This document shows, one piece after another, positions 2,619-25,914 of a stretch of 64,000 bases of DNA. The notes beneath the pieces were generated by a model. The model made no database searches, was not told the DNA's origin, and saw only the letters and a list, made by a program, of their open reading frames with translations. Position 1 is the first letter of the stretch, and each line of letters begins with the position of its first letter. Made by a program: the position numbers and the translations under genes. The stretch is from a virus (lineage: Duplodnaviria; Caudoviricetes). The DNA is taken from IMG/VR virus record IMGVR_UViG_3300014205_000022, positions 2,193-66,192 of that record. One strand, written 5' to 3'.

Positions 2619-3209
2619 ATGAACATAAGACAATACGGGATGCTCATGGAACTTGAGTTCCTTCTTGAGCCTCACAAAGACATGCCAGAAGACCAGATGC
2701 ATCGGGTCGCACAGCACGTTGCGTTTAAGAACGCATGCAAGCAATTGGGCTTTGATGTCGACATTGCTTATGATGAGTCACGCGGCTCCATGCAGTATAT
2801 GATCACCTGCGCTAATGGGCGACGTGTGTTTAACATTGATTTACGCGGCGTTATGCTAAGCAATGTTGGCCTCATTCACTATGAGGCCATTGATCTTGTT
2901 CGCAAAGCTAAGAGCGAGCTAGACAGTCGTGCAGGTGGGCATACGCATAGGTGCCCAAGATGCGGTGAACCAGCACACCGCGATGGCAAGGCATTCATCT
3001 GCGGATCGTATCAGCGGATGGATGGTGTGTTCGTCCAGACTGACCAGCGCCATAAGATCCAGGTCTATGCGCAAGCCACCAAGGCGGCACGTGACAATGG
3101 ACAAGGGTGGCAATCAGTTCAAGATGAGCGAGTGCGTGAGGTTGTTCTGAAAGACCGTATCATGCAAGACATCATGCGTGGGGCCTATCATGATTCCACG
3201 ACGACCTAA
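2619..3209 (+). CDS. Hypothetical protein with CPRC zinc-ribbon-like segment
   Basis: ORF in the operon direction; contains HRCPRCGEP...FICG. Confidence 0.55.
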   Translation: MNIRQYGMLMELEFLLEPHKDMPEDQMHRVAQHVAFKNACKQLGFDVDIAYDESRGSMQYMITCANGRRVFNIDLRGVMLSNVGLIHYEAIDLVRKAKSELDSRAGGHTHRCPRCGEPAHRDGKAFICGSYQRMDGVFVQTDQRHKIQVYAQATKAARDNGQGWQSVQDERVREVVLKDRIMQDIMRGAYHDSTTT

Positions 3210-3336
3210 GAGTCAAGGCGCAAGCGCTTCTGGCAACGCGACTTACCCAGCACAATGCAAGCGTTGTGGCAAGGTGATTAAGAAGCAGAAGGGCAAGGAC
3301 GCTGTGTTGATCTGTTCATCTTGTCAGCGAAGGTAG
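3190..3336 (+). CDS. Small zinc-ribbon protein (48 aa, not in ORF track)
   Basis: MIPRRPKSQG...CKRCGKVIKKQKGKDAVLICSSCQRR fills the gap between neighbouring genes. Confidence 0.5.
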   Translation: MIPRRPKSQGASASGNATYPAQCKRCGKVIKKQKGKDAVLICSSCQRR

Positions 3337-3340
3337 CGTT

Positions 3341-3628
3341 ATGATCGTCCTTAAGTATGAGCTCCAAGTTGGTAGGCAGCGCGTCATGCTGCCGATCAAG
3401 CGCAAGATTCTTAGTGCACAGATTCAACGAGAGGCACTGTGCCTGTGGGTGGTGGTTGACAACAGGTCAAAGCTTGAAGATGTTGTGATTTACGTTGTTG
3501 GAACTGGTCAGTCGTTAGATCCCTTTGACTTCCCTGACATCGATCATCTGCCTGAATACATCGCCACTGCACAAGGCGATGGAGCATACGTGTGGCATGT
3601 CTTTGTGGAGCCACAAGGTGGCGTGTAA
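3341..3628 (+). CDS. Conserved phage hypothetical protein (DUF7352-like)
   Basis: The pattern KYEL...ILSAQIQREALCLW...VVGTG...VWHVF is common in small phage proteins. Confidence 0.55.
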   Translation: MIVLKYELQVGRQRVMLPIKRKILSAQIQREALCLWVVVDNRSKLEDVVIYVVGTGQSLDPFDFPDIDHLPEYIATAQGDGAYVWHVFVEPQGGV

Positions 3629-4352
3629 AGATTTCGTTGATGATGGAACGAATCAGCAGTGTGGCGTCTTTAAATGGGTAGACGGTAAACACAGCATTCG
3701 CTCAAAGCGAGCTGAAGGTAATAGGTGTCCGCATGAGGCACGACCAGACCAGCTGTATTGCAAGTGCCACGACAAGATCAACCATTTAAGCAGGTCGCTT
3801 AAGAGATTCCCAATGGCTTATCGAGTTCTGTCTAAGGTGTTGACTAGGCGTCTTGAGCAGATCAATGCTGACTGCAACGAGATGATCCACTTAAGACACG
3901 AACTTGATCTTGTGCGAGCGGCTGCTGTTGATTCAGTAGAGGCGTATGATCAAGCGCTTGACCTCGTTGATATGGCCCAGGGCACTGAGGACAAAGCGAC
4001 TCTTGACGCGGCATACAGCGTAAGAGCTGCTGCAGCCGATGCGATGCGCGATGCGCTTAAGCATGTGCGCAAGACAGCACTTGATGCTGCGCGAGTCGAA
4101 GCGTTAAGTGCTGCGCAGTATTCGCCAGTTGCCGTGCGTGAGATCCTTACGCAGGTGATCCACATCGTTCATGATGCGTGTAAGGACCATGTGGATGGTG
4201 AGACGATCGCTGCTGCCATCGATTTGCGTATGCGCGAACAGATTAAGGTGGGTGAGGCTACTGCATCAACAACGTCGTTGACTCCCGACATCATTGATGC
4301 GGAGGTTCTTGACATGGACAGCACAGTACCTAGAGCCCTGACACATGAATGA
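3618..4352 (+). CDS. Candidate terminase small subunit
   Basis: N-terminal RC...A...YCKCH motif followed by a helical LRHELDLVRA region; lies upstream of TerL. The GTG start at 3618 is inferred. Confidence 0.45.
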   Translation: MACKDFVDDGTNQQCGVFKWVDGKHSIRSKRAEGNRCPHEARPDQLYCKCHDKINHLSRSLKRFPMAYRVLSKVLTRRLEQINADCNEMIHLRHELDLVRAAAVDSVEAYDQALDLVDMAQGTEDKATLDAAYSVRAAAADAMRDALKHVRKTALDAARVEALSAAQYSPVAVREILTQVIHIVHDACKDHVDGETIAAAIDLRMREQIKVGEATASTTSLTPDIIDAEVLDMDSTVPRALTHE

Positions 4353-4614
4353 TGCTCTTCTTAAGCCAGGCACGAAGTGTTTCGCTAAGCGTGACATCGT
4401 TGAGCCGCCCGGTGAAGACTGGCCCGGCGGCGTGTATGCCAGTCGTGGTGAGGTCCTTGAGATTGTGCGTGCATGCGATCCGCCACACCACTCATTCAGG
4501 TACGTGATAAAGGATCCACGTGGGCATGAGTACTATGTTCGCTGGGCGGAAGTAACAGTAGTTAAACCAGAAGAGAGGAAAAATAATGACGATTACAGTG
4601 GGCACGCGTATTAG
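4345..4614 (+). CDS. Hypothetical protein (SH3-like beta pattern)
   Basis: Start and stop coupled to neighbouring ORFs. Confidence 0.5.
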   Translation: MNDALLKPGTKCFAKRDIVEPPGEDWPGGVYASRGEVLEIVRACDPPHHSFRYVIKDPRGHEYYVRWAEVTVVKPEERKNNDDYSGHAY

Positions 4615-4816
4615 GTTCACGCGTAACTTGTTTGTTGCGCACTGGAAAACACACGTGTCCATACTTGTTGCGGCGCGCGGTGAGCTGGGTACGATTGTTG
4701 GTGATGGATGCGCTACATGGGATCGTGGAGGCGGGCTTCAGTTCGAAGTCAAGCCAAGCGACTTTACAGTAGAGGAGACAGAAGAATGCGATGTCGAACC
4801 TGCGGAGATTGGTTAG
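4586..4816 (+). CDS. Hypothetical protein
   Basis: Coupled ORF in the operon direction. Confidence 0.45.
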   Translation: MTITVGTRIRFTRNLFVAHWKTHVSILVAARGELGTIVGDGCATWDRGGGLQFEVKPSDFTVEETEECDVEPAEIG

Positions 4817-5475
4817 GCCTGTTTGGGCAGAAGGCTCCGTGCACGAGATGCGTTGAACACGATCGACTTGTGCATGGGTTGCGCGGTGCCGTAATCATGG
4901 CCAGTTGTATGGCCGGCAAGACTACAGTGTCGCCATTGCCAACCGACCAAGGCAATCTGCAGCAACTACTGCGTGATGCGATCTATCTCACTGGTGCAAC
5001 GCGCGTCGAGAGTGAAGAGCATCGTCTCCTTGAGCTTGAGCAGTATCTTTGCTCTGGCGCCTATGTAACGTTCGATGATGCGCATGTGACGCTGCGTTAT
5101 AAGGATGACAGCATCATTGCATACTCATGGACGGTCGCGGGCCTTCACCTTTTGATGGCTGAGCTTAAGCGACTGTACGATGAGTATGTTGAGCAGCTGG
5201 CCAATGAGGCACAGTGCCATATTGATGACGAGTTGTTCACTTACATCGATGATGACTATGTCGTTGACAAGTCAAGATTCAACAACGAGACAGAAGCTCT
5301 CGAGTTTCTTAAGCAGTATGGTATCAAGCGTGTAGCATGTCCTGAGAATCTTATCAGGACAACACAGTCACTCAGTCAGCATCCGCAAGAGATAAGAGAC
5401 GCAGTTCGTTATCTTACTGGCATGTGTGGCTATGCTTGGGAGCAGTCTTATCCACAAGGCGACTTCACGAAGTGA
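4786..5475 (+). CDS. Hypothetical protein with N-terminal CxxC...CxxC
   Basis: ATG at 4786 follows GAGGAG; MRCRTCGDW...PCTRC. Confidence 0.55.
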   Translation: MRCRTCGDWLGLFGQKAPCTRCVEHDRLVHGLRGAVIMASCMAGKTTVSPLPTDQGNLQQLLRDAIYLTGATRVESEEHRLLELEQYLCSGAYVTFDDAHVTLRYKDDSIIAYSWTVAGLHLLMAELKRLYDEYVEQLANEAQCHIDDELFTYIDDDYVVDKSRFNNETEALEFLKQYGIKRVACPENLIRTTQSLSQHPQEIRDAVRYLTGMCGYAWEQSYPQGDFTK

Positions 5476-5926: not shown

Positions 5927-7231
5927 TTGGTGATGAGTAGTATGCTAACCTCCGCATGGACGCCTCTTAAGTATCACCAGCAACAATCACAACTGTGGCG
6001 AACCAAGGCTCGCTTCGTTGCTGTGTGCGCTGGGCGAGGCTCGGGCAAGAGTGAACTGGCTCGCCGCCGCGTCGTGCGAATGTTGCCAGTTAAGAAGGCG
6101 TGGACTGACCCGCTTTACTTCTATGCATTGCCAACATTAGGGCAAGCGCGTCGTGTAGCCTGGGATAAGATTAAGCTACTGGTTCCGCCCCATTGGATTG
6201 AGAAGACCAATGAGACCACGATGGAGATCCTGACTGTATTCGGATCTACATTGCGGATCCTTGGCTTGGATGAACCAGCCAGAGCGGAAGGCGTCCAGTA
6301 TGATGGTGGCGTCATCGATGAATCAAGTGATCAGAAACCTGGTATATTCAACCTCACTTTTCGTCCTGCTCTTACTCACCGATCCGGTTGGTGCTGGCGA
6401 ATTGGGGTGGCAAAGAGACGTGGAGTCGGGGCTCGAGAATATCGTAAGGTATTTGAGCAATGGGGTTCCGCTAGAGACGGTAATCATGAGGCTTATACAT
6501 GGCCTAGCACAGACATCTTGCCACCTGAAGAAGTAGAAGCCGCACGCGCATCTCTTGATGAGAAGGACTTCAATGAACAGATCCTATCATCATGGGAGAG
6601 CGATGCAGGCCTTGTGTACTATGCGTTTCATGAAGCTGCTTCATGCCGTCATGACCTTTCTTATGATCCAAGCCAGCCGATTATCGTAGGCAGTGACTTC
6701 AACGTCGACCCTATGGCCTGGGTGATCATGCAGCAGCATGGGCCAGAGCTGCATGTGTTCGACGAGATATGGGAGAGCAACACCAACACGCAGCGAACGC
6801 TTGATACTCTTCACGGTCGCTACGGTGGGCATCAAGCCGGTTGGCTGTTCTTTGGTGACGCGTCTGGTCGAGCACGTAAGACGTCAGCGTCGATGAGTGA
6901 CTATGTACAGATACGCAATGACGTTAGGTTCAAAGGCGCAAGGGTATTGTATCCAAAGAGCAATCCAAGAGTTGATGATCGTGTTGCATCAGTGAACGCC
7001 CAGCTTAAGAACGCTGCCGGCGAGAGAAAACTATTTATTCATCCTCGGTGCAGTCACCTGGTACGGGATCTCGGGTATCTGTCTTATGACGCAGGGTCTC
7101 GTGAAATCAACGAGAAAGACCCAGACGCCAAGCATATCACTGATGCGCTTGGCTACCCGATTCATTACCTCAGGCCAGTGCAAGTCCACGTCGACGACGA
7201 TGAGGTGGGTGAGGCCGTAGGAGTCATGTGA
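5927..7231 (+). CDS. terL: Terminase large subunit (Terminase_6-like)
   Basis: Walker A AGRGSGKS, Walker B GGVIDE, nuclease motif IVGSDFN and C-terminal HITDALGY. Confidence 0.93.
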   Translation: MVMSSMLTSAWTPLKYHQQQSQLWRTKARFVAVCAGRGSGKSELARRRVVRMLPVKKAWTDPLYFYALPTLGQARRVAWDKIKLLVPPHWIEKTNETTMEILTVFGSTLRILGLDEPARAEGVQYDGGVIDESSDQKPGIFNLTFRPALTHRSGWCWRIGVAKRRGVGAREYRKVFEQWGSARDGNHEAYTWPSTDILPPEEVEAARASLDEKDFNEQILSSWESDAGLVYYAFHEAASCRHDLSYDPSQPIIVGSDFNVDPMAWVIMQQHGPELHVFDEIWESNTNTQRTLDTLHGRYGGHQAGWLFFGDASGRARKTSASMSDYVQIRNDVRFKGARVLYPKSNPRVDDRVASVNAQLKNAAGERKLFIHPRCSHLVRDLGYLSYDAGSREINEKDPDAKHITDALGYPIHYLRPVQVHVDDDEVGEAVGVM

Positions 7232-8433
7232 TGGTGCTGTTTATCAACGACAGTATGGTTCGCACTGGGGTTGCTGAGGATAGCGTTGCTGCTGCAGGTC
7301 TTGACAGGCACGGTCCTGGAGGCTCACAGTCTGATAAAGAGCGCCTTGATTGGCTGCGTAGACAGTCAATTGCTATTAAGAAGAAGCTTGGTACGAAGGC
7401 GAAGAACGACACTGCTTATAATAACTATATGGCAGAGTATAAGAAGATCGCGAAGAAGCTTGGGTATACTGCGTCTTCGAATATCTCCGCCGCAGAATCG
7501 CTTTTCCCAAAGACAAAAGCTAAGCCGATCATCATTACCGTTAAGAGTGGTGGTAAGTCAAAGATGGGACCCATGTCCGCAGCTGAAGTTGCTGCGTGGA
7601 TAGCTGACGAGATTGTGGATGACAGCACTACGTTCGGAAAAGCGACGGCTAAAGGAAACGTGATCACTGTTACTGGAGCGAAAAAGAGTAAAGTCGCAGA
7701 GATCGCTAATCGTGAGTCATTTGGCGCGAAGATTGAAATTACGGCGTCGGCGGGCGATGTTGAAGCCGCCGGTGACATGCCTGAAGATCGCCTCCCTGAT
7801 CGTAAGCGCGTGACGATCCAACTGACCGGCAACAACTTGCCACGCGTCATTCAGCTGCTCAAAGCGCAGTTCGAAAACGTCAAGGTCAATGGCAATACTG
7901 CGTCTGTTGAAACGTCGTTCCCTAACGCTGTTTCTATCGGACTGCGGCGTATCGACCCTGGCGCTAAGGTGATGGACGTTGTTAAGCTGAGTGGCGTTGT
8001 GAGTGCTGCATCAACACCCAACACCAACGCTCGCTACATCTTCCCCAACGAGCAAGCCGCTTCAGCGTTCGTCGACACGATCTTGCGCATGGGCAAGGGA
8101 CTGAAGGCTGCTTACAAAGGTCGTGCTGCTGTAGTTCTTAACCCTGGTGTGTACGCCGCTGAGGTGAGTGATGCTGCCCGTAAGGCTGGTGGCAAGCCGC
8201 CTGCGGCTGGTGCGAGTGTTAGTGCTGCCGCTTCAGCAACCGCGTTCATTGATATGGGCGGCCAGTTCAAGACTGCACAAGACTTGATGCGAGCTGCTAA
8301 GTCCGCTGGTCTCACTGTGAAGTCAAGGACGCTGCCTGATGGTATTGACGTTGTTCTCGTTGGTGACAAGGCAAAGATCCAGCAAGTAGCTGGTCAGTTC
8401 GGAATCAAAGACACATTCATTGGTTGGAGCTAA
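7231..8433 (+). CDS. Lys/Ala-rich modular protein, candidate head-internal polyprotein
   Basis: Lies between terL and portal. Modules of about 65-90 aa are separated by VAAA, ISAA, VEAA, VSAA and VSAA. Confidence 0.6.
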   Translation: MVLFINDSMVRTGVAEDSVAAAGLDRHGPGGSQSDKERLDWLRRQSIAIKKKLGTKAKNDTAYNNYMAEYKKIAKKLGYTASSNISAAESLFPKTKAKPIIITVKSGGKSKMGPMSAAEVAAWIADEIVDDSTTFGKATAKGNVITVTGAKKSKVAEIANRESFGAKIEITASAGDVEAAGDMPEDRLPDRKRVTIQLTGNNLPRVIQLLKAQFENVKVNGNTASVETSFPNAVSIGLRRIDPGAKVMDVVKLSGVVSAASTPNTNARYIFPNEQAASAFVDTILRMGKGLKAAYKGRAAVVLNPGVYAAEVSDAARKAGGKPPAAGASVSAAASATAFIDMGGQFKTAQDLMRAAKSAGLTVKSRTLPDGIDVVLVGDKAKIQQVAGQFGIKDTFIGWS

Positions 8434-8435
8434 CG

Positions 8436-9464
8436 ATGGTTACGCGCGCACAACGATACAAGATGAGTCGGCAGACGGTGGCATGTGCGGCTTCAACTCC
8501 GCCCAAGACTCAGCGCTTGTCGCTCTCGTTCACCAGTGATCTGGATCGTGAACTGTTTGCCACTGAGCTTGAATTCGCATTCCGCAAAGCGCCACGGCGC
8601 ATGGAGACGTGGAACGCTTCGATAGCTGTGCCAGTTCGCAACACCAATGAGGCAGGCTTCGTGAAGCGCCTCGCACAGAAGTACGATGGTGTGAAGCTGA
8701 GTCATGGCGCGACGATCAGCGCTGCAGCGGACAAGTGGACGAAGTTTGATCCAGAGCTTCCACGATATATCATCAATCTTGAGAATCCCAGAGACGAAGA
8801 GCGAGCTGGAAACGCCCTGATGAAGGCAGGACAGCGTGGGTTCAGCAGTTCAGGTGCTAAGATTTGGCTGAAGACCAACAACATTGATAAGATGGTTGCG
8901 GCTATTAAGGCAAAGGGCGTTCGAGTCTCCGGTGTTGAAGAGCACGGACTTCAGGCACCAGCAATGTCTGCCTCTCTCCCAGGTGAAGATCACACCGCTC
9001 CAACCAGTGACCAGCCAACCGCCTGTGATATGTCGCTGTCGTTCAGCAACTCGCAAGCGGCTCATCGGTTCGCCGCTGGCCTGATGCGCATGGGCGCCAA
9101 AGTATCTGTGGACGGCCCGTCAGTTAAGTGCTCGTTCCCGTTCGCTCAAGCAAGCAAGGCGCTTTCGTTCGCCGCTAAGCTGACTGGTGCGGGTGATGCA
9201 GGTACGGTTGCTGCCGGCCCAATGACGTCTGATATCAATAAGCCTGCGCAGCCTGTTGTGTTGATGTTTATTGATGCAAAGACTGCTGCTCAGGCGGCTA
9301 AGAAACTGCAAAGCTTTTCGCCTGACGTGCAAGTTAAGGGCGCTTATGTCAAGGTTGTTGATCTTGATCGCAATAAGGCTCTTGGCGTTGCACGTCAGTT
9401 TGACCGAGCGGCAACCATTGATCCGAAGAATGGACTGCACGCTGGGTTTAGTGCAAGCGCTTGA
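8436..9464 (+). CDS. Modular protein, candidate head-internal polyprotein
   Basis: Modules are delimited by VACAA, ISAA and MSAS, with a terminal FSAS; each module alternates beta and alpha segments. Confidence 0.6.
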   Translation: MVTRAQRYKMSRQTVACAASTPPKTQRLSLSFTSDLDRELFATELEFAFRKAPRRMETWNASIAVPVRNTNEAGFVKRLAQKYDGVKLSHGATISAAADKWTKFDPELPRYIINLENPRDEERAGNALMKAGQRGFSSSGAKIWLKTNNIDKMVAAIKAKGVRVSGVEEHGLQAPAMSASLPGEDHTAPTSDQPTACDMSLSFSNSQAAHRFAAGLMRMGAKVSVDGPSVKCSFPFAQASKALSFAAKLTGAGDAGTVAAGPMTSDINKPAQPVVLMFIDAKTAAQAAKKLQSFSPDVQVKGAYVKVVDLDRNKALGVARQFDRAATIDPKNGLHAGFSASA

Positions 9465-9484
9465 TGATACTCTTCACATGAGGC

Positions 9485-9832
9485 ATGATGAACGCTATCA
9501 TCAAAGATGCTGAAGTACGAAACCTCGCGATGCGGCCGAGTCCATTCGCTTTGAATGAAGACCCACCGCGTCAGCGAGGTCGTACCGTTTTCCAGCTCTT
9601 CGATCAAGGTGAACCAGTTCAGCAGACTCTTGATCTTAATCAGCTTGTCGCCACACAGCGTGCATTCGACGCTGAGCATGTGCATAAGCTGATGTCTAAG
9701 CCTAGCGATGATCCGATTGAGTGCGTGCGTATGGGCGGCAAGTTGTTCATCACCAATGGCCATCATCGAGCAACAGCTGCTGCGTTCAACGGTGATAAGA
9801 CGATCCGAGCTAACGTGGTGTTTGCGAAATGA
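9485..9832 (+). CDS. ParB/Sulfiredoxin-like domain protein
   Basis: LFITNGHHRATAA matches the ParB-N (D/N)GHHR motif; N-terminal IIKDAEVR leader. Confidence 0.7.
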   Translation: MMNAIIKDAEVRNLAMRPSPFALNEDPPRQRGRTVFQLFDQGEPVQQTLDLNQLVATQRAFDAEHVHKLMSKPSDDPIECVRMGGKLFITNGHHRATAAAFNGDKTIRANVVFAK

Positions 9833-10173
9833 CGTCACCAATCGTTAAAGACGCTGAGATAAGAGCCTCATCGCCGATTGTTGATGAGGTTAAGAAGCTG
9901 TTGATTCGTGCAAATCCAGCCGCTGTTCGTGGCGCGCTTGTATCAGTTAAAGAGTTGCGCCGTTCCACCAACTTGCCTAAGTCAGTTCTTGACAGCTTAA
10001 TGATCCAAGCGATGCGCACTGGAAAAGTGGTCGGTCATAAGCATGACTACGTGTCGTCGTTGTCTGATGCTGATCGCAATGTGCTTGTGAATGACCCAAA
10101 GGCAGAAGACTACGGACACAGCGGAACCAAATTCAAAGGCGCCTACTACGTAGGCTTTGCCATAAGACAATAG
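9829..10173 (+). CDS. Small basic protein, possibly DNA-binding
   Basis: N-terminal IVKDAEIRAS leader; helical core VSVKELRRSTNLPKSVLD. Confidence 0.55.
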   Translation: MTSPIVKDAEIRASSPIVDEVKKLLIRANPAAVRGALVSVKELRRSTNLPKSVLDSLMIQAMRTGKVVGHKHDYVSSLSDADRNVLVNDPKAEDYGHSGTKFKGAYYVGFAIRQ

Positions 10174-10182: not shown

Positions 10183-11685
10183 ATGGTTGAAAAGACAAGC
10201 GAACAAGTTCTTGCAACAACTGGTATTGATGGCCAGCTTAGCAAGCTTATGCCTAAGGACTGGGCTAAGAAAGTCCGCTTGATGCGCCGTGACCCAACTC
10301 TTGGGTTCGTGCGTGACCTGTACATGGCACCCTTGCTGGCAAGTGAATGGTCTGTTGTCGCTGATGACCCCAAGTATGAAGATGCTGTTGACATCGTCTA
10401 TGATGCCATCGTTCCTAAGCGTCTTCAGCTTATGGAGAACGCGATTCGTGGCCTGCTTGACTTCGGGTGGCAAGCGTTCGAGCAGGTGTTCTCATATACT
10501 AAAGACGGGTGGATCACACTGCGTAAGCTGAAGCCATTGCTTCAAGATATCACGTACATCCTTGTGAACAGCCGTGGTGATATCAAGGGTGTGCGTAATC
10601 TGCCGACGTATCTCTCTGCGTTCAACAACCCATTCGCCGGTCCGTGGATTGACCTCAATGTTGATGAGTGTCTTGTCATTTCACGTGATGTGGAAGGCAC
10701 GAACTGGTATGGTGAAGCGCTTATGCGTCGTGTGGAAGCGCCGTTTGACTCATGGAATGAGTGTGAGTACGCTGCCAAGCGGTTTGACACGAAGATCGCT
10801 GGTGCTCACTGGGTTGTGTATTATCCGATTGGGCGTTCACGTTATAACGGCCAAGAGGCTGTGGACAACTTCATCATTGCCAACGGCATCCTTGATGCGT
10901 TGACATCGAGTGGAAAGATTGCCATTCCACAAAAGATCCTGCAGCAGACAACTGATCTTAACTCATTAGGCGAAGATAAAACGGTGTGGAAGATCGAAAT
11001 GATCTCCGCCAGCGGTAGCAGTGAAAGTTCGTTCGTCGGTCGCCAGAAGTATCTTGATGCACTTAAAGCGCGTGGTCTTGGTATTCCAGAGCGGGCAGTG
11101 TTTGAAGGCCAGTTCGGAACTAAAGCCGAAGCTGAAGCGCATGCTGACTTTGCCATTGACAACATTGAGATGGCGCACGTGCGATTGATTGAGCAAGTGA
11201 ACACCCAGGTCGTCAATCAGCTGCTTCGCCTTAATAAGGGCGAGCACTATGAGGACCATGTGACGATCACGGCTACACCACTCTCTGATTGGAAGCGGTC
11301 GCAGCTTAGGAATCTGTACACAGCTTACTTCGGAACTGAATCTGGTCAAGCGCAGGAAATTGAAGCGATTGACTGGGACGCTGTTCGTGAGGTGCTTGGT
11401 ATTCCAACACATGCCGATATGGATAAGCAGTACGAGGCGCCAGCCGGTCGTGGAACAGTTGGAACGTTCGCTCCAACGAGCCGTAGGTCGTCTGGTGAGC
11501 TGACTGGTTTGTCACGTCGTCAGATGATGAACGTGATTAAGGACATCAAGGATATGCGCCGTGAAATTGCTTCAGGTGCAACCACGAAGCAGATGGCTGT
11601 TGAAGTTCTGCAATCGCGTGGAATCTCTCCAGACCGAGCCGAGCGGTTTCTTGCAGACGTGATTGAACCGTCTGCTGGTGTTTAG
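10183..11685 (+). CDS. Portal protein (Mu gp29/DUF935-like) with C-terminal extension
   Basis: Size, position, and motifs such as LMRRDPTL, LDFGWQAFEQV and GEALMRRV...W resemble DUF935 portals. Confidence 0.8.
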   Translation: MVEKTSEQVLATTGIDGQLSKLMPKDWAKKVRLMRRDPTLGFVRDLYMAPLLASEWSVVADDPKYEDAVDIVYDAIVPKRLQLMENAIRGLLDFGWQAFEQVFSYTKDGWITLRKLKPLLQDITYILVNSRGDIKGVRNLPTYLSAFNNPFAGPWIDLNVDECLVISRDVEGTNWYGEALMRRVEAPFDSWNECEYAAKRFDTKIAGAHWVVYYPIGRSRYNGQEAVDNFIIANGILDALTSSGKIAIPQKILQQTTDLNSLGEDKTVWKIEMISASGSSESSFVGRQKYLDALKARGLGIPERAVFEGQFGTKAEAEAHADFAIDNIEMAHVRLIEQVNTQVVNQLLRLNKGEHYEDHVTITATPLSDWKRSQLRNLYTAYFGTESGQAQEIEAIDWDAVREVLGIPTHADMDKQYEAPAGRGTVGTFAPTSRRSSGELTGLSRRQMMNVIKDIKDMRREIASGATTKQMAVEVLQSRGISPDRAERFLADVIEPSAGV

Positions 11686-11710
11686 GTACCAACGTTTGAC
11701 AGGGGGTGCT

Positions 11711-12088
11711 ATGGCAGTAACGCTTTCGCAAAGGGCTGAAGATGTAGGTCGACAATCGTCGAATGCAGTCGGTCTTGATCCGATTACGATCATGACGGTG
11801 ATCACGACAGTTCTTCCCGCGATGATCAGCTTGTTCCAGTCTTGCAAGAAGACGAGTGAGCCGGCTGATGAGCAAGCTTGGCTTAAGTCCAAGTACAATG
11901 AACGCCGTGGAGAGTTTGCTGCGCCTGTCCTTCGTAACGCTTCACGTGCAGTGCGTGATGATTATGAAGAGAAGACTGGTGAACGACTTACGACTAAGCA
12001 GTCGCGTGAAATCGCGCATCGCATGATGTACGAAGGAATGGCTGCAAAGAAGAGCGAATACGCTGCGTGGAAGTCCGCAGCTGGATAA
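11711..12088 (+). CDS. Membrane-anchored protein of the lysis region
   Basis: Hydrophobic segment GLDPITIMTVITTVLPAMISLFQSC followed by a helical domain. Confidence 0.55.
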   Translation: MAVTLSQRAEDVGRQSSNAVGLDPITIMTVITTVLPAMISLFQSCKKTSEPADEQAWLKSKYNERRGEFAAPVLRNASRAVRDDYEEKTGERLTTKQSREIAHRMMYEGMAAKKSEYAAWKSAAG

Positions 12089-12153
12089 GATGACGTCTGA
12101 GAGATGAACACGTGCATTGCACGGGCTCTTCTCTCAACTGATTCTTTGCAAGT

Positions 12154-12191
12154 CCTGACTGTCAGCATGATGTTGACAGTCAGGCTTCTTT
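12154..12191 (+). terminator. Probable intrinsic terminator
   Basis: CCTGACTGTCAGCA/TGTTGACAGTCAGG stem followed by CTTCTTT. Confidence 0.6.
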
Positions 12192-12207
12192 AACCAGGAG
12201 ATAGTCT

Positions 12208-13074
12208 GTGAAGACTTCAGTAGTGAAGGCCGCGTTTCTTACGCTGGCCTTTTGCCATATCTGCAGCGCACAAGACAAGCCGATTATCAAGGCTGCACCA
12301 GTCGGTGGGCGGCTTATTGCTGTTGGTCAAACACAGCTTGTCTCGAACAATGAATTCGAATTCTTCAACCTTACTGGATATGAAGGTAAGGTGACGTGGG
12401 ACGTGTCATTGCCAGACGGCATTGAGGTGTCGCCGATCAAGCTGTTCCCAGTGCAAGCCGGCCAGATTGTTATCGGTACGAAGGTCGGAACGGATGCCCC
12501 AGAAGTGCATCTGGCTCCAGATGGCCAGTCGGTCGCGATATTTGCCGTCGGAACCGGTAAAGTTATGCTGAAGGCATGGGGCGTCCTTGACGGAGCTGCT
12601 ATACCGATCGCCGAATTGAAAATTCAAGCCCAGCAAGGCCCGCGTCCGCCACCGACTCCAGTTGATCCAGTCGATCCAGATCCAGTTGATCCAGATCCTG
12701 TTGATCCTACGCCTACACCAATGCCCATCACCGGCTTGCGTGTGTTGATTGTGTATGAGTCGTCGGCTGCTCTTACGCGTGAACAGCTTAACATCATCAA
12801 CAGCACGGCACTTATAACTTATCTCAACGAGAAGTGCGTTAAGAGTGCGAGTGGTCAGCCTGACTGGAGACGTTGGGATAAGTCAACCATCGATATCACT
12901 GGGCTTGCCAATGAGACGAAGATCTGGCAGGACCTATGGCCAGTCGTTAGTCCTACACTTAAGAAGCTTCCTGCACTCGTCATCGTGAATGACACGAAGT
13001 CAACGGTGTATGACCTCCCAGCGACAGAAGCTGAAACACTAGCATTCATCAAGAAAATCGTGGAGGGCAAATGA
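12208..13074 (+). CDS. Secreted two-domain protein with Pro/Asp linker
   Basis: Signal-like N-terminus KTSVVKAAFLTLAFCHICSA; linker PPPTPVDPVDPDPVDPDPVDPTP. Confidence 0.65.
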   Translation: MKTSVVKAAFLTLAFCHICSAQDKPIIKAAPVGGRLIAVGQTQLVSNNEFEFFNLTGYEGKVTWDVSLPDGIEVSPIKLFPVQAGQIVIGTKVGTDAPEVHLAPDGQSVAIFAVGTGKVMLKAWGVLDGAAIPIAELKIQAQQGPRPPPTPVDPVDPDPVDPDPVDPTPTPMPITGLRVLIVYESSAALTREQLNIINSTALITYLNEKCVKSASGQPDWRRWDKSTIDITGLANETKIWQDLWPVVSPTLKKLPALVIVNDTKSTVYDLPATEAETLAFIKKIVEGK

Positions 13075-13865
13075 GCTTCTCTTCTTCACTGTTTGATGCT
13101 GAGCCGATTATCAATGATGATGGGATGGCGAACACGGCTGAGCCACCGGGTTGTAAGCGTGGTCTTGATCTGTCGGCTCGCGGACCAGGCGAGTATGAGT
13201 ATGGTGCCGCCGCAGATCCGTTCCCAGCAGAGTGGCTTGTGCCTCGCCATGAATGGCAAGCGCGCATTCAAGAGATGGAAGAACGTAAGTCGCGTCTTAG
13301 CGACATCTGCACTCTTGCCAATCTTCCGTATCAAGACCAGAATGGTTTGAACTATTGCTGGATTGCGTCACCAGCATACGCTCTTCGGGTTATGCGGTGT
13401 CTGCAGAACCAACCTGACATTGCTTTGTCGCATGCGTCTGGTGGCGCGCAGATCAAGAACTTCCGTAACGTCGGTGGATGGGGCAAGGAGGCTCTTGAGT
13501 GGATTGCTTCCAAGGGTCTTAATGCTGACAGTGATTGGCCAGCTAACAGCTTGAATAAGAAGTACCTTACTGCAGAGAACAAGGCGAAGGCGCTTCTTAA
13601 CCGCGTTGTTGAGTGGAATGAACTTGCACCACGGAACATCGACCAAGCTGTGTCTGTTCTCTTTCGTCGTATGCCATTGCCGGCTGGGTTTAATTGGTGG
13701 TCACATGAAGTGACGCTGATTGATCCTGTATGGCTTGATGGCGACATTGCGTTTAGATTCAGGAATCAGTGGCAGGGATACGGTGTTAATGGGTATGGAA
13801 TTATTCAGGGATCACGTATGCGGTTTGATGACGGTGTAACACCTCGCACGGCGTATGCATCATGA
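13071..13865 (+). CDS. Papain-like (C1-type) cysteine peptidase, candidate lysin
   Basis: QDQNGLNYCW supplies the oxyanion Gln and catalytic Cys; WWSHEV the His; RNQW the Asn. Confidence 0.75.
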   Translation: MSFSSSLFDAEPIINDDGMANTAEPPGCKRGLDLSARGPGEYEYGAAADPFPAEWLVPRHEWQARIQEMEERKSRLSDICTLANLPYQDQNGLNYCWIASPAYALRVMRCLQNQPDIALSHASGGAQIKNFRNVGGWGKEALEWIASKGLNADSDWPANSLNKKYLTAENKAKALLNRVVEWNELAPRNIDQAVSVLFRRMPLPAGFNWWSHEVTLIDPVWLDGDIAFRFRNQWQGYGVNGYGIIQGSRMRFDDGVTPRTAYAS

Positions 13866-14305: not shown

Positions 14306-14358
14306 TTACGAGTGTGATTTAAGTACTACGATGGCAGAGTCGAACAGCCTAATACTAA

Positions 14359-14841: not shown

Positions 14842-14915
14842 TTTAACAGGGGCTGTGCTCCGGCGGATGGGAGGTGATTCCATCTGCGGCTTGGTGGTTG
14901 ATGGGAGGTGAGCCA

Positions 14916-15386: not shown

Positions 15387-15402
15387 TCCAGTCAGGGGCG
15401 AC

Positions 15403-19066: not shown

Positions 19067-19836
19067 CTGATGTCCTGTATCTTGATACAGACAATGTGTA
19101 CCGTGTTGATGGTGTTAAGAACTCTCAGACTGGCGAGTTCATTAACGACGCTGTTGTTACGCTAACACTTAAAGATGCTGATGGTGTCGAGATAGTCGGC
19201 GAGACGTGGCCGCTGACTCTTGACTACGTTGCTGGCAGCGACGGTTCATACCAAGCGGCGCTTACTGACGCGCTTGAGTTAGTTGATGGTGAGACGGGCA
19301 CGGCTGTCCTTGAGATCGATGGTGATAGTCTTCAAACGACTCTTGAGCTACCAATCCAGTTCGCCACACGTGGTCAGGCGTCTCTTGCTTGGACGTCGTC
19401 ATCTGAACTGTATGCGATGTTTGGGCGAACTAATGTTCGTAAGTGGGCGGACCTTGAGAACATAGCTAATGAAGACGATATCTCGCTTCGTCTTCAATGG
19501 GCTATTGACGAAGCAACTGAAGAAGCGAGAATGCAACTAACAGACTCGCCGGTTGACTTGCCGAATATGGTATCCGCTCCGCGACCTTTGCGTATCGCTG
19601 TTACGCGTCTTGCTGGCGTGTTCTTGTATGAAGCGCGTGGGATCAAGGATACGTCTGACGAAGAGGGCAAGCACCGGCTGTCATCGCATAAGAAGGCAGC
19701 ACAGACATTCTTTCAGCGCGTGCAAGCTGGTCAACTACGCATTGATGCTGGGTCTACATCATACCCAGTCGTCTCAGACGACACTGATGAGGATTCGCTA
19801 GATGATCTGCAAACTGGGGCAGAGATCTTCCTGTAA
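19063..19836 (+). CDS. Head-tail adaptor (Mu gp36/DUF1320-like) with N-terminal Ig-like domain
   Basis: C-terminal half ELYAMFG...LQWAIDEA...P..L...RLA...LYEAR; N-terminal half is all-beta. Confidence 0.65.
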   Translation: MTDVLYLDTDNVYRVDGVKNSQTGEFINDAVVTLTLKDADGVEIVGETWPLTLDYVAGSDGSYQAALTDALELVDGETGTAVLEIDGDSLQTTLELPIQFATRGQASLAWTSSSELYAMFGRTNVRKWADLENIANEDDISLRLQWAIDEATEEARMQLTDSPVDLPNMVSAPRPLRIAVTRLAGVFLYEARGIKDTSDEEGKHRLSSHKKAAQTFFQRVQAGQLRIDAGSTSYPVVSDDTDEDSLDDLQTGAEIFL

Positions 19837-20620
19837 GACTGGGTTCGACTTAAACGTCGAGCTAGCACCAATCGATCGTCGCTCTGATCACTTCATCAAC
19901 AGGCTTGCACTGGCTACTCAGCTGGGCAAGCCTGTAAGTCTTGATGAGGTTAGCAAGGCTGTGTATGAAGCCATGCTGTCAGCTCATCACTTAGCATTAG
20001 AGACGTGTCGGCTGCGACGCCGCTTATACAAAGCCGGCATGATTGAGATGTCTGATGCGCAGATTAAGAAGATTCTTAACAACTCAACGAAGACGGATAA
20101 GGATGCTCTTCGTGAGTTGTATGGATCCATCGCACGCTCAGTGACGAACAAGTCGATGAGTAAGGTGCGTGAAGATCTTATGAAGGCGGCAATAGGCGAG
20201 GTAAACAACAAGCCTAAGCAAGCTGATAAGAGTCTTAAGTCAGCGCTTGGTGCGACTGGCCCTAACAAGAAGGCAAGCCCAGTTCTTCGCACGGTCTTTA
20301 GAACGCAAACTGCCATCGCGTATAACGCGGCAGCTTGGATTGAAACGCAAGACGATGATGACGTGTGGGGCTATGAGTACACAACCGCCGGTGATGAACG
20401 CGTAAGAGACACGCACGAAGAACTAGACGGGCTGCGATATCCAAAGTCCGACCCATTCTGGGATGTGTACTCACCACCTAACGGATGGAATTGCCGCTGT
20501 TCGCCAGTGCCCATCTATCGTGGAGAGAAGAATGCTAGAAAGAAGACGAAGAAAACACTGCCACCAGTAGATAAAGCATTCAAGACTAATTTTGGGAAAA
20601 TTTTCTCAGTTAGTGTTTGA
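19802..20620 (+). CDS. Head morphogenesis protein (Mu gpF / SPP1 gp7)
   Basis: FRTQTAIAYN...AGDERVRDTH...DPFW...PPNGWNCRC signature; true start uncertain. Confidence 0.9.
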   Translation: MICKLGQRSSCKTGFDLNVELAPIDRRSDHFINRLALATQLGKPVSLDEVSKAVYEAMLSAHHLALETCRLRRRLYKAGMIEMSDAQIKKILNNSTKTDKDALRELYGSIARSVTNKSMSKVREDLMKAAIGEVNNKPKQADKSLKSALGATGPNKKASPVLRTVFRTQTAIAYNAAAWIETQDDDDVWGYEYTTAGDERVRDTHEELDGLRYPKSDPFWDVYSPPNGWNCRCSPVPIYRGEKNARKKTKKTLPPVDKAFKTNFGKIFSVSV

Positions 20621-20646: not shown

Positions 20647-21804
20647 GTGTCTAAGATGGCTAATAAAGATATTATATTCCTGTGCGCATCGACCAGCTTT
20701 GAGAAGACAGAGCTTGGGCCTGATGTGTATCGCAAGGAATTGATTTATCCTGGGCACTTCGTTAAGAAAGATGCGAAAGGCTCAGTCGAGTTTGAGTTGC
20801 CAGTCGACGAGACGCTTCTTGATCATTGGGTAGCAACATTCAACAAGATGAAGGCTGCTGGCATTGAAGTGCCAGTGCCAATCGAGCATACAACTGATCC
20901 TGAGCAACGACGAGGCACTGTTGTTGATCTTAAGAAGGAGATGAACCCAGAGCGGAAAGAGCCGGCGCTTTATGCTTACATTAAGTTCCGTGATCAACCG
21001 ACTGGTGATGCTCTCTCGAAGACGACGCAAGTTAGCTTGTTCTCGCCTCCTGATTTTGTTGACGGCAAGGGCATTAAGTACGTTCGTCCGATCAGGCATG
21101 TTGCTCTTACGGACTACCCGCTCGTTCCCGGGCTCGCTGGATTTGAGAAGGCCATTGCTGCCTCTCTTGTACTCTCACAGGATAAGGAAACACAGATGAG
21201 CCCGATCTCTGATCTTGCTGATCAGCTTGGCGTCGAGTATCCGCAAGGTGCAACCGACGAAGAAATCAAAGCCGCCATCGTGTCTGCTTGGAATTCTGAC
21301 GTGCCCATGGACGGCACCGATGAAGAGCTTGATCCGCTTGAAGGCGAAGATCCTCTTGGCGAGGACGATTCCACGCTGGGCGAAGAAGACCCAACGATGG
21401 AAGACGATGCTGAATTCGGCGACGATCCGATGATGGAAGACGATGCTGGATTCGGCGATGATCCGATGATGGAAGAGGAAGATCCAGTGCCGCAGGCGCC
21501 AGTGTCTGCGTCCATCGTGACGCAGGTGTCCAAGGCGCGTCGCACTGAGCTCGAACAACTGGTTCGTGATCGCAAGATTACGCCAGCTGTTCGTGATCGC
21601 CTTGCTTCGCAATACACGACCGCTGGCAAAGTTGCGTTCGCGCTTTCGCACAGCAATGCTGATGACGGCTTCGATGGTATCGTCGCAGCTCTTTCTCTGA
21701 ACAAGCCTGCGTACCGTACAGGTAGCCGCACGATGGCGCAGGCTGTTGATGGTAGTGACTCTCCGCTGGTTGTCGATGCTGATCGGCGCGCCAAGCGTAA
21801 GTAG
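20647..21804 (+). CDS. Prohead protease/scaffold (Mu gpI-like)
   Basis: VPVPIEH (His) and VSLFSP (Ser) protease motifs, then HVALTDYPLVPGL, followed by an acidic scaffold domain. Confidence 0.8.
   Translation: MSKMANKDIIFLCASTSFEKTELGPDVYRKELIYPGHFVKKDAKGSVEFELPVDETLLDHWVATFNKMKAAGIEVPVPIEHTTDPEQRRGTVVDLKKEMNPERKEPALYAYIKFRDQPTGDALSKTTQVSLFSPPDFVDGKGIKYVRPIRHVALTDYPLVPGLAGFEKAIAASLVLSQDKETQMSPISDLADQLGVEYPQGATDEEIKAAIVSAWNSDVPMDGTDEELDPLEGEDPLGEDDSTLGEEDPTMEDDAEFGDDPMMEDDAGFGDDPMMEEEDPVPQAPVSASIVTQVSKARRTELEQLVRDRKITPAVRDRLASQYTTAGKVAFALSHSNADDGFDGIVAALSLNKPAYRTGSRTMAQAVDGSDSPLVVDADRRAKRK
21397..21468 (+). repeat. 36-bp tandem duplication (MEDDA[EG]FGDDPM x2) in scaffold linker
   Basis: Two near-identical 36-bp units read directly from the sequence. 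Confidence 0.85.
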
Positions 21805-22355: not shown

Positions 22356-23417
22356 GTGATGGCGCTGTTGGACATCTTTAGCACGGACGCATTTAGCGTC
22401 CACAACCTGTCGATGGCCATCGACAAGCTCCCATACGAGCCTGGTCGAATTGGCCGTCTTAACCTCTTCAAGCCGATGCCGATCACGACTACGATCGCCA
22501 TCGTTGAAGAGCGGTATGGTAAGCTCAGCATCTTGCCGACCATGCCTCGTGGTTCGGAAGGACAGACCACGCAGAGCGGTGTTACACGCAAGATGCGTGC
22601 CTTTCCTGTTCCGCACGTGCCCAACTGGGACGCGGTGCTGGCCTCTGATCTGGAAGGCAAGCGTGCCTTCGGTAGCGAGACCCAGACGGAGATCTTCGCC
22701 GGTGTGGTGAACGATCGACTGGAGATGATGAAGAAGAACCACGAGCTTACTCGTGAGTACCATCGTGTCGGTGCCCTTCACGGTATCGTGTTGGACGCTG
22801 ACGGAACGACGGAGCTGATTAACTGGTTCACCGAGTTTGGGATTACCCAGACCGTTGAATACATCAACTTCTACGACTCTGGCTCGTATGACCAGTCTGA
22901 CCCGGTCATCGACATGAAGCAGAAGTGTACGCTGATCAAGCGCCACGTGCAGGACGCTCTCGGTGCTACGCCGTTCCGCAACCTGCGTGCGTTCTGCGGT
23001 GACACGTTCTTCGACAAGCTGGTCGTTCATCCGACGGTTCGCCGTGCGTATGAACAATACCAGAACAACACCTTCGCTCGCAGTCTTCAGAATGATGAGA
23101 CTGGGTTCGAATTTGGTGGGATCATCTGGGAAAACTACCGTGGGTCGATCGACGGTATTGACTTCTTCGACGACGATGAAGCGATCGTTTTTCCGGAAGG
23201 CTCGGACATCTTCCAGGAAGTCATCGCGCCTGCTGACTTCGTCGAAACCGTGAACACTCGCGGTCAGCCGATTTACGCCAAGCAGGAACGGATGAAGTAC
23301 GACAAGGGTTTGGAACTGCACACGCAGTCCAACATCCTGTACATGTCCGCTCGCCCCAAGGCCCTGATCCGGCTGATCGGAATCGACGAAGCTCCTGGTA
23401 CCGGCTCGACGCCATAA
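22356..23417 (+). CDS. Major capsid protein (lambda E / Phage_cap_E family)
   Basis: DIFSTDAFS...LSMAIDKLPY.PGRIGRLNLF and THEYHR-like TREYHRVGALHG; C-terminal tail APGTGSTP. Confidence 0.92.
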   Translation: MMALLDIFSTDAFSVHNLSMAIDKLPYEPGRIGRLNLFKPMPITTTIAIVEERYGKLSILPTMPRGSEGQTTQSGVTRKMRAFPVPHVPNWDAVLASDLEGKRAFGSETQTEIFAGVVNDRLEMMKKNHELTREYHRVGALHGIVLDADGTTELINWFTEFGITQTVEYINFYDSGSYDQSDPVIDMKQKCTLIKRHVQDALGATPFRNLRAFCGDTFFDKLVVHPTVRRAYEQYQNNTFARSLQNDETGFEFGGIIWENYRGSIDGIDFFDDDEAIVFPEGSDIFQEVIAPADFVETVNTRGQPIYAKQERMKYDKGLELHTQSNILYMSARPKALIRLIGIDEAPGTGSTP

Positions 23418-23918: not shown

Positions 23919-24445
23919 CTGGTGTGAATCCATTCGTTGATGTGTACAATGCGTTGTGGAATCTTGCAGAAGATTCGACACCGCTTACCACATTGGTGAA
24001 ACCCAGCAACAGAATCAAGTATAACCAGTCTGTACCATATGACCCTACGAAGGATGAGGTTAGTGAAGCTGACCTTCCTGAGTTGCTGTTGGTAAGTACC
24101 GGCAGTTCAGGCAACCTGCGTCAAAGTTCGTCAACCAGTAGCATCATCCGTCAATATGAGTGGCTGATTGCTACAGGCGACACAAGCTTAGTCAACAAGC
24201 TGCTTCGCGTTGAATGGGCTTTGTTCTGCGCAATGTCAGACTGGCCAACAGTGCTTAATGCATTGACGTTTCAAGGCTCAACGTTCTGCAAGCGAACGCA
24301 GCTTGTGTCAGTTAATTCAGGGCTTACTGACCCTGAGCGAAATCGCGGGATCAACGGTTGGTCATCCATCTGGGCTCTTGAAGTCGAGATGCACTTCAAG
24401 ACAACTGACCTGCATGCAGTCAACATCGGAACCGGGAGCGCATGA
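23915..24445 (+). CDS. Tail terminator-like protein
   Basis: Position before the tail tube gene; DLPELLLV motif; ends in IGTGSA. Confidence 0.6.
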   Translation: MTGVNPFVDVYNALWNLAEDSTPLTTLVKPSNRIKYNQSVPYDPTKDEVSEADLPELLLVSTGSSGNLRQSSSTSSIIRQYEWLIATGDTSLVNKLLRVEWALFCAMSDWPTVLNALTFQGSTFCKRTQLVSVNSGLTDPERNRGINGWSSIWALEVEMHFKTTDLHAVNIGTGSA

Positions 24446-24705
24446 TGGCGAACGAAGTTGTTAAAGACGCAATGAAGCGTGCTGGTGAGAAAGTTCCGGC
24501 GAATTTCGCGTGTGCAAGTACCGAGGATGTAGTTGCAATTGCAACACGCCTTCGTAAAGCTCTTCAAACTGTTCAGCAAGAGCTTGTTAACCTTGCTGAG
24601 TTAGACCCAAGTATTGAGCGTATCGTGCAAAAAACCGACAAGCCAGTTCGAGCTGTATATGATGCGGTTGCTGCAGCTGTTGGCGCCAGTAAGTCACTCA
24701 AGTAA
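24442..24705 (+). CDS. Small helical protein with VVKDA leader and FACAS motif
   Basis: Coupled ORF inserted between terminator and tube genes. Confidence 0.55.
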   Translation: MMANEVVKDAMKRAGEKVPANFACASTEDVVAIATRLRKALQTVQQELVNLAELDPSIERIVQKTDKPVRAVYDAVAAAVGASKSLK

Positions 24706-25650: not shown

Positions 25651-25914
25651 ATGTCACGAAGACACCCGATGTATTACGCGCCAACTGCACGGCGATCGAC
25701 CTTTCGTTGTGCAGCTGGCGGTATGCAGAAGAAAGATGCCAAGCTGCTTAAGGATCAGCTTATCATGCTGTCCAACAAAGCAGATACGATTCGCAGCACG
25801 CTTGACCGTGCAGGTGGTGTACCAAGTCGTGTGTTGACTGCAGTTGAAAGTGCCATCAAGTCGATGGATGCTGCAGCGGATGCAGTTGACAACTATGCAG
25901 GTACCTTGTCTTAA
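25651..25914 (+). CDS. Small helical protein with FRCAA motif after a short leader
   Basis: ORF inserted between tube and chaperone genes. Confidence 0.55.
   Translation: MSRRHPMYYAPTARRSTFRCAAGGMQKKDAKLLKDQLIMLSNKADTIRSTLDRAGGVPSRVLTAVESAIKSMDAAADAVDNYAGTLS

Follow-up and report, generated by a model that had tools for sequence, protein, structure and literature searches.

Putative prohead-protease-processed polyproteins in the head region of an uncultivated tailed phage

Internal head proteins that carry a targeting leader and are processed by a prohead protease are already known. In phage T4, IPI, IPII, IPIII and Alt bear a capsid-targeting sequence and are cut by the prohead protease gp21 at L/I-x-E. 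This targeting sequence, like the N-terminal signal of DarB in phage P1, sends cargo into heads (PMC9024508); the T4 internal proteins are treated in PMC9024508, PMC9026906 and PMC3012670. The prohead protease of phage SPN3US cuts at A-x-E in nine head proteins (PMC10052503). Polyvalent proteins are multi-module, mosaic proteins linked to head genes, for which delivery along with the DNA and proteolytic release have been suggested (PMC5512222, Iyer et al. 2017). In herpesviruses, assemblin combines an N-terminal Ser-His-His protease with a scaffold and makes release and maturation self-cuts, at YLQA-T and VQA-S in pseudorabies virus (PMC4498786). In the searchable literature we found neither a tailed double-stranded DNA phage that makes many small virion-internal proteins from a polyprotein nor, for a 66-kb phage with a Mu gpI-type enzyme and an Ala-Ser type site, a string of many folded, shuffled mini-modules with the site of the protease between them. 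Here, we describe two adjacent open reading frames (ORFs), ORF-A and ORF-B, which may encode such chains. They lie in a stretch of 64,000 nucleotides (nt), hereafter the window, which makes up nearly all of the 66,192-bp IMG/VR virus record IMGVR_UViG_3300014205_000022, a record with direct terminal repeats.

Junction peptides and modules of ORF-A and ORF-B

The proteins encoded by ORF-A and ORF-B consist of a short leader followed by a string of modules, with a recurring peptide at the borders (Table 1). In ORF-A this peptide reads VAAA at residue 19, ISAA at 85, VEAA at 177, VSAA at 257 and VSAA at 330 (intervals of 66, 92, 80 and 73 amino acids, aa); in ORF-B it reads VACA at 15, ISAA at 94, MSAS at 177, TVAAGP at 258 and FSAS at 338. 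A sequence-only reading of this DNA had already pointed to all of these places save TVAAGP, a junction that it overlooked and where homologues have VSAGP, VAAGP, FACGP or WACGP; the AAST-P continuation that it described after two junctions is likewise present, as VVSAASTPN and VACAASTPP. A further match, MSAA at residue 115 of ORF-A, falls at the start of a helix in one of the modelled domains and is unlikely to be a junction. With the cut placed after the third residue of the motif, where the scissile bond would presumably lie, ORF-A is predicted to give a 21-aa leader and five pieces of 66-92 aa. For ORF-B the prediction is four pieces of 79-83 aa, preceded by a 17-aa leader and followed by a dipeptide. 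The isoelectric point (pI) is 9.0-10.0 for all but one of the nine predicted pieces, and the modelled fold is beta-alpha-beta-beta-alpha-beta, in line with the small, basic, alpha/beta modules of the earlier description.

The start codon of ORF-B deserves a comment, as the leader depends on it. ATG 8436 stands two bases past the stop codon of ORF-A (TAA 8431-8433), with GGAG 7 nt upstream. The database gene call (P0007, 333 aa) begins at ATG 8463 and loses the conserved leader MVTRAQRY. Because this peptide is conserved in homologues and GGAG precedes the upstream ATG, the true start is 8436 and not 8463, as the sequence-only reading had it.

To measure how unusual the junction peptide is, we defined a strict motif, [IVMF]SA[AS], and a loose form, hydrophobic-Ser/Ala-Ala/Cys-Ala/Ser/Gly. 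ORF-A contains four strict motifs and ORF-B three, whereas 0.20 would be expected when either sequence is shuffled (P<0.0002 and 0.0016, respectively). Elsewhere in the window (about 75 ORFs) it appears just once in the portal protein and once in the protease-scaffold, and it is missing from three further proteins that are also Ala-rich (15-18% Ala). Its background in 284,000 aa from the ORFs of 44 related loci is 0.51 per 1000 aa, versus 9-15 in ORF-A and ORF-B, so that the motif density of the polyproteins is about 20-fold above that of related loci. A repeat or recombination signal at the DNA level was ruled out: the codons of the motif vary between copies (TCC, AGT, AGC and TCT for Ser, all four codons for Ala), and the region 7200-9500 holds just three short chance repeats. 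The differing codons and the absence of a DNA repeat point to selection acting on the peptide.

The position of the motifs was then considered in predicted structures. For ORF-B, an alignment of 12 sequences gave an AlphaFold2 model (mean predicted local distance difference test score, pLDDT, of 72.5; residues numbered as in the 333-aa form) that contains four confident beta-alpha-beta-beta-alpha-beta domains at residues 14-81, 99-162, 185-242 and 261-314. The five linkers with pLDDT below 50 (1-13, 82-98, 163-184, 243-260 and 315-333) hold one motif each, while the domain interiors hold no strict motif and a single loose match, FAAG, located in a helix. When residues are shuffled within the linkers, all five contain a motif with a probability of about 4e-6; this value and the motif-free Ala-rich proteins rule out a plain Ala/Ser-rich linker composition as the cause. 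In the ORF-A model the five listed motifs are all within low-confidence stretches, one of which (residues 1-25) includes the leader. Agreement between AlphaFold domain boundaries and motif positions had been named as a check with the sequence-only reading, and for ORF-B it was obtained, the motifs lying in linkers predicted to be disordered. A lipobox or signal-peptidase reading of W-S-C-G and V-S-A-A was also rejected, the sites being internal and repeated, with no signal peptide before them.

In a word-index search, ORF-A had a single homologue, P0006, and ORF-B had six. HMMER searches against 1.84 billion representatives, with no length limit, gave 12 relatives in total, all multi-module and at least 240 aa long; no stand-alone module was among these matches, and no relative of the polyproteins was found in IMG/VR or GTDB genomes. 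One metagenome locus with relatives, L003, shares the gene order of the window, with terminase, 158-aa ORF, 1623-aa ORF and ORF-B homologue in succession. The junction peptide is kept in these diverged relatives while the modules shuffle, which bears out the conservation expected by the sequence-only reading. Thus, P0006 has ISAA five times plus VSAA, VEAA and ISAD; P0014 and P0016 have VSA[AS] six to eight times; the 1623-aa protein of L003 has at least 15 [NH]VSA[ASGD], including the doublet VSAARNVSAAS; and P0010, P0012 and P0013 have W/F-[SA]-C-G. The spacing of the motif in homologues is mostly 62-87 residues, and the C-termini of P0008 and P0009 read GASA and GASS.

The modules themselves are distributed as cassettes. 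A3 is homologous to P0006 92-169, a block that spans from junction to junction at another chain position. P0006 also contains homologues of A4 (392-460) and A5 (464-529), and the L003 polyprotein contains two homologous copies of A4. B1, which has the invariant pattern SF..D.DR..F..E.E...P...WNAS...A.KY, is found in 11 of 11 homologues at chain positions 21 to 327, and B3 in nine, each time after B1. A1, A2, B2 and B4 are unique to the window phage, and a module of P0006, an ORF-A type protein, recurs in P0013, which is of the ORF-B type. Cassette order and number differ in every homologue. As the blocks of homology run from motif to motif at varying chain positions, the unit of evolution is the junction-to-junction cassette. 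The 1623-aa ORF of L003 (1803-6674) contains a tandem duplication at 2850-5087, with a start-to-start distance of 1119 nt and at least 300 nt of 100% identity; this is either a very recent duplication of a cassette block or an assembly artefact, and its removal would shorten the protein to about 1250 aa.

The protease-scaffold and its border sites

The presumed processing enzyme is a protease-scaffold protein encoded in the same head region. Against PF10123 (Mu-like_Pro) it scores 20.9 bits, below the cut-off of 25.2, and the profile is matched by 16 of 27 tested homologues of the window protease (homologue E down to 1e-166); P0026 exceeds the cut-off with 31.5 bits over profile positions 22-291 of 330, which include the protease and scaffold parts. 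Judging by sequence, the window protease is a Mu gpI family member on a divergent branch. Its gene lies in a Mu-type head operon, with Portal_Mu at 10183, Phage_Mu_F at 19802 and the capsid protein at 22356. Among 95 homologues of the protease-scaffold, H78 is found in 94, and S127 and H148 are found in all; we infer a catalytic role for this His-Ser-His set. Two members of the family, P0047 and P0051 (558-561 aa), have a Mu F domain (PF04233) in the chain and are MuF-protease fusions. The acidic linker of the window protein (21271-21501) contains repeated D-D-P-M-M-E-D-D-A-G-F-G units, and an acidic linker of variable length is a feature of the whole family.

Two borders in the chain carry the junction peptide of the polyproteins. 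Site 1 has the consensus F-E-x-I-A-A-S-L; of the 95 homologues, 46 have IAAS there, 78 an Ala at P1 and 83 a Ser at P1'. Site 2 has the consensus V/I-S/A-A-S-L-V, with a hydrophobic P3 in 76 of 80 and with VAAS, VSAS and IAAS as its commonest forms. IAAS, VSAS and the N-terminal FLCAS of the window protein are where the sequence-only reading had placed them; FLCAS is kept in close relatives alone (8 of 95), and a Cys-Gly type site is absent from the proteases of all 95 homologues. Since the junction peptide is identical to the domain-border peptide of the phage's own protease, the polyproteins are probably cut inside the capsid. Most simply, hydrophobic-[SA]-A↓S (the arrow marking the proposed cut) would be the self-processing site of the whole protease family, and a small clade would have strung cargo cassettes between copies of it. 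In the recognised peptide, a hydrophobic residue (V>I>M,F,W) would then occupy P3, with Ser or Ala at P2, Ala (or Cys) at P1 and Ala, Ser or Gly at P1'. From its identity with the border sites, its placement and its conservation, we consider it likely that the motif is cut and that the protease-scaffold cuts it. In the 42 IMG/VR loci with related proteases, ORFs with two or three motifs were rejected as relatives of the polyproteins, being unrelated PhoD/lectin, beta-helix and MuF proteins.

The same evidence bears on the possibility that the chains remain uncut, as full-length beads-on-a-string proteins whose linker peptide is a docking motif for the protease-scaffold, a glycosylation sequon or a structural cap. 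The linkers are indeed rich in Ser, Thr, Ala and Pro, and the motif also ends ORF-B, where cutting gains little. However, the two borders at which the protease-scaffold would be expected to cut itself are precisely where the tetrapeptide is found, conserved in 95 homologues, and the peptide also comes after short conserved N-terminal leaders; moreover, it joins modules of unrelated sequence and so would be no domain cap. We regard uncut chains as quite improbable.

Another enzyme could also cut the junctions, one bond earlier, at hydrophobic-Ser↓Ala: either a host protease or the product of ORF 13071-13865, apparently a papain-like cysteine peptidase and cytoplasmic. By eye, this ORF has QNGLNYCW, WSHE and NQW in the order of the Gln/Cys/His/Asn set of papain; it has no signal peptide and lies in the same late region. 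Papain-type enzymes prefer a hydrophobic P2, which would suit such a cut. The candidate peptidase has, however, no Pfam, PHROG or PDB match, and no homologue of it was found in the 42 loci whose protease-scaffolds keep IAAS and VSAS; the enzyme always travelling with the motif is thus the prohead protease, and we judge cleavage by another enzyme to be very unlikely.

Leaders, proposed processing and fate of the modules

The leaders are better conserved than the modules. MVTRAQRY is identical in three homologues of 37-58% overall identity and is conserved in P0008, P0009 and P0011-P0013, and the pattern MVTRAQRY...VAC↓A is conserved in six ORF-B homologues. An ORF-A-like leader is found in P0006 and in the 1623-aa protein of L003 (MTPLFLSSARTKV), and a like leader on P0117. 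Two 87-aa proteins encoded in the head-tail/tail-chaperone region, by ORFs 24442 and 25651, may be further substrates or cargo: the leader of the second resembles those of P0014/P0015 (MSRRDMY) and of the 158-aa ORF of L003 (MARHQMYY), and both of these ORFs, like ORF-B and the protease, have a hydrophobic-x-C-A-[AS] peptide among their 25 N-terminal residues. A conserved N-terminal leader followed by a prohead protease-type site is also a trait of the T4 type, and leaders ending in the motif recall the T4 capsid-targeting sequence; by this analogy they may have a targeting role.

Our favoured reading, to which we give an even chance, is that ORF-A and ORF-B encode late head-operon polyproteins that are cut by the prohead protease into nine mostly basic proteins of 7-9 kDa, which stay in the head and are injected. 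The leaders would direct the polyproteins, along with the protease-scaffold, to the procapsid as it assembles; contacts between the basic modules and the acidic linker may help, and this linker could offer a docking surface for basic leaders and modules. In the procapsid, the Mu gpI-type serine protease would cut itself at its conserved borders, IAA↓S and VSA↓S, and the same protease would cut each junction, strip the leaders and free the nine proteins, eight of them basic. These would remain in the head with the DNA and exit with it at infection, as the T4 internal proteins do. Leader import and the retention and ejection steps are modelled on the T4 capsid-targeting sequence, the DarB signal of phage P1 and the ejection proteins of giant phages. 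For retention in the head followed by injection, as a separate part of this scheme, we would put the chances slightly below even.

The fate of the pieces is also where an alternative has to be weighed. The chains could be cut by the prohead protease and yet act as auxiliary scaffold or core, or as charge-neutralising filler on the acidic linker, with the fragments leaving the procapsid before or during packaging. The fragments that prohead proteases release from propeptides are, as a rule, expected to leave the head (PMC10052503). Basic modules opposite a scaffold linker of 39% Asp+Glu suggest an electrostatic role in assembly, and no effector domain is recognisable in the modules. Against this, the modules are well folded in the model and independently conserved, with invariant residues (B1, for example), and their shuffling and replacement between relatives is what one expects of accessory functions that diversify, not of a structural core; furthermore, related phages with the same protease build heads without polyproteins. 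Folded domains of 7-9 kDa are also similar in size to the IPI* that is retained in T4. Such a filler or scaffold role seems to us unlikely.

Several observations count against our favoured reading of processed and injected polyproteins. A cut at the terminal FSAS of ORF-B, which is followed by two more residues and the stop codon, would free just a dipeptide. Some junctions of homologues are degenerate (TSTS in P0008), and few motifs are found in P0017 and P0018. The ORF-A model is poor (two sequences, pLDDT 50), and a PDB profile search with the protease family gave no match. Phages supplying both protease and polyproteins number two, both with the same motif, and no polyproteins were found in 42 IMG/VR phages with related proteases, which suggests that the protease sites are old and the polyproteins a rare add-on. 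Neither the DNA nor, by tblastn, the ORF-A, ORF-B and protease proteins had a match among 50,697 GenBank phage records, placing this phage in an uncultivated lineage.

No Pfam, PHROG or NCBIfam family was assigned to ORF-A or ORF-B, and Foldseek (PDB, BFVD) and the ESM Atlas returned just generic tandem ferredoxin-like look-alikes (ACT, HMA, RRM, KH, Secretin_N), from which the function of the modules cannot be read. The sequence-only reading had proposed polyproteins cut into DNA-binding or anti-defence peptides: its polyprotein and cleavage-site part gains strong indirect support from linker placement, conservation, the protease borders and the leaders, while the DNA-binding or anti-defence part found no evidence in the generic fold and the lack of a family match. 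More generally, tailed phages might diversify injected mini-proteins by means of cassettes of 60-90 aa that are placed behind a portable capsid-targeting leader, loaded into the procapsid and cut by the capsid-maturation protease at copies of its own self-processing site, a proposal that we make tentatively and hold to be somewhat doubtful. New cargo might then be gained by recombining a cassette between two sites, a possibility we regard with the same reserve.

If the cuts are real, they would provide a specificity rule, hydrophobic-Ser/Ala-Ala↓Ser/Ala, for the widespread and biochemically little-studied Mu gpI head proteases, together with an assemblin-like self-processing map conserved in about 95 phages. 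They would also mean that a tailed double-stranded DNA phage makes many small virion-internal proteins from a polyprotein, that nine unannotated mini-proteins are candidate early-acting injected factors, and that the leader-plus-site design could serve to load foreign proteins into capsids. The system is small enough for gene synthesis and co-expression without the phage.

Genome setting and comparison with known systems

The + strand of the window carries the genes of the head region, in the order large terminase, ORF-A, ORF-B, two small ORFs, Mu-type portal, an insert of about 8 kb, Mu F-like protein, protease-scaffold, decoration-like protein, capsid protein and tape measure protein (Table 1). 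The major capsid protein has no N-terminal propeptide, position 2 of the Phage_cap_E profile corresponding to residue 15. The insert (11663-19836) consists of mostly unannotated genes and separates the portal from the Mu F-like gene, which are normally neighbours; it contains the papain-like candidate ORF 13071-13865, a class-4 holin (14359-14841, Pfam E 3e-26) and, in a stretch of high guanine-plus-cytosine content, a 714-aa Ala-rich protein (16686-18830). The two small ORFs between ORF-B and the portal (9485-9832 and 9829-10173) have a common N-terminal peptide, I-[IV]-K-D-A-E-[VI]-R, which is found in ORF 24442 too and continues in ORF 9829 as EIRAS, consistent with hydrophobic-x-A-S. In ORF 9485, the stretch NGHHRATAA recalls ParB/sulfiredoxin-type domains, and there is a weak VapB-like Pfam match (E 6e-5, below the cut-off).

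Table 1. Features of the polyproteins, the protease-scaffold and the surrounding head genes; module limits are those predicted from the proposed cuts, and pLDDT values are from the models described in the text
Feature	Position	Strand	Description
Large terminase subunit	5927..7231	+	PHROG terminase large subunit families, E 1e-23; directly upstream of ORF-A
ORF-A, putative polyprotein 1	7231..8433	+	400 aa, ATG 7231; 21-aa leader and five modules
ORF-A leader	7231..7293	+	MVLFINDSMVRTGV...SVAA; ends in first motif, VAAA 7285-7296
Module A1	7294..7491	+	66 aa, helical hairpin, pI 10.0; junction ISAA 7483-7494; no homologue
Module A2	7492..7767	+	92 aa, alpha/beta, pI 9.0; junction VEAA 7759-7770; no homologue
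Module A3	7768..8007	+	80 aa, pI 9.8; junction VSAA 7999-8010
Module A4	8008..8226	+	73 aa, pI 10.0, end GGKPPAA-x-SVSAA; junction VSAA 8218-8229
Module A5, C-terminal	8227..8430	+	68 aa, pI 9.3; pLDDT 73-86, best-modelled part of ORF-A
ORF-B, putative polyprotein 2	8436..9464	+	342 aa; 17-aa leader and four modules
ORF-B leader	8436..8486	+	MVTRAQRYKMSRQTVAC; ends in motif VACA 8478-8489; disordered in model
Module B1	8487..8723	+	79 aa, pI 10.0; junction ISAA 8715-8726; pLDDT 85-92
Module B2	8724..8972	+	83 aa, pI 9.5; junction MSAS 8964-8975; confident beta-alpha-beta-beta-alpha-beta domain; no homologue
Module B3	8973..9215	+	81 aa, pI 6.7; junction TVAAGP 9207-9218; confident domain
Module B4	9216..9455	+	80 aa, pI 9.7; terminal FSAS 9447-9458; no homologue
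Portal protein	10183..11685	+	Pfam Portal_Mu, E 1.4e-10
Mu F-like minor head protein	19802..20620	+	Pfam Phage_Mu_F, E 5e-18; directly upstream of protease-scaffold
Protease-scaffold, presumed processing enzyme	20656..21804	+	382 aa from ATG 20656
Invariant His, Ser, His	20887-20889, 21034-21036, 21097-21099	+	H78, S127, H148
Site 1, IAAS	21154-21165	+	End of protease domain
Acidic linker	21271-21501	+	39% Asp+Glu
Site 2, VSAS	21502-21513	+	After acidic linker, start of scaffold domain
Major capsid protein, lambda E type	22356..23417	+	Pfam Phage_cap_E, E 9e-81
Candidate substrate	24442..24705	+	87-aa helical protein; FACAS at residue 22
Candidate substrate	25651..25914	+	87-aa helical protein; ORF-B-type leader MSRRHPMYY...TFRCAA
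Tape measure protein	26578-28695	+	

Like polyvalent proteins, ORF-A and ORF-B are mosaics of several modules that are rapidly reshuffled, and they too are linked to phage head genes. Polyvalent proteins, however, are built of large known enzymatic or binding domains, with an embedded MPTase thought to release them, whereas the modules described here are 60-80 aa long, belong to no known family, have no embedded peptidase and are joined by a linker peptide matching a protease that acts in trans. None of the conflict domains (MuF, MPTase, ArdC-N, methylases) was found by Pfam in ORF-A or ORF-B, and MuF is a separate gene at 19802.

The protease-scaffold recalls herpesvirus assemblin (UL26/UL80) in having the protease N-terminal to a linker and scaffold, with His, Ser and His invariant in that order, and in having two conserved border sites, IAA-S and VSA-S here, in which P3 is hydrophobic, P1 is Ala and P1' is Ser, a comparison of layout and residue order rather than of fold. 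It differs from assemblin in that there is no detectable sequence similarity and that the second site stands at the start of the scaffold domain instead of near the C-terminus; in addition, herpesviruses have no cargo polyproteins bearing the site.

With the inner-body and ejection proteins of phiKZ-like phages (gp53/gp54 of SPN3US and the protease gp245; PMC10052503, PMC5694885), the polyproteins would share a location inside the head, processing by the prohead protease at a short motif (A-x-E in SPN3US) and several copies of that motif per substrate. In those giant phages the additional cuts fall in long N-terminal propeptides, which are broken up, and a single mature protein is left, whereas here each piece between two sites is predicted to be a folded, conserved module, and the phage, at 66 kb, is not a giant one.

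The T4 internal proteins are likewise small, basic and encoded with head genes, have a short conserved leader followed by a protease site, and follow a recognition rule of hydrophobic P3, any residue, and P1. No match to IPI-III or other known internal proteins was found in PHROG, Pfam or NCBIfam, or by tblastn in the GenBank phage records, so that ORF-A and ORF-B at most work like them and are not members of the family. P1 is Glu in T4 and Ala or Cys here, where the protease is of the Mu gpI family. Finally, each T4 internal protein has its own gene and a single cut, whereas the chains described here string together up to five cassettes, and about 20 in L003.

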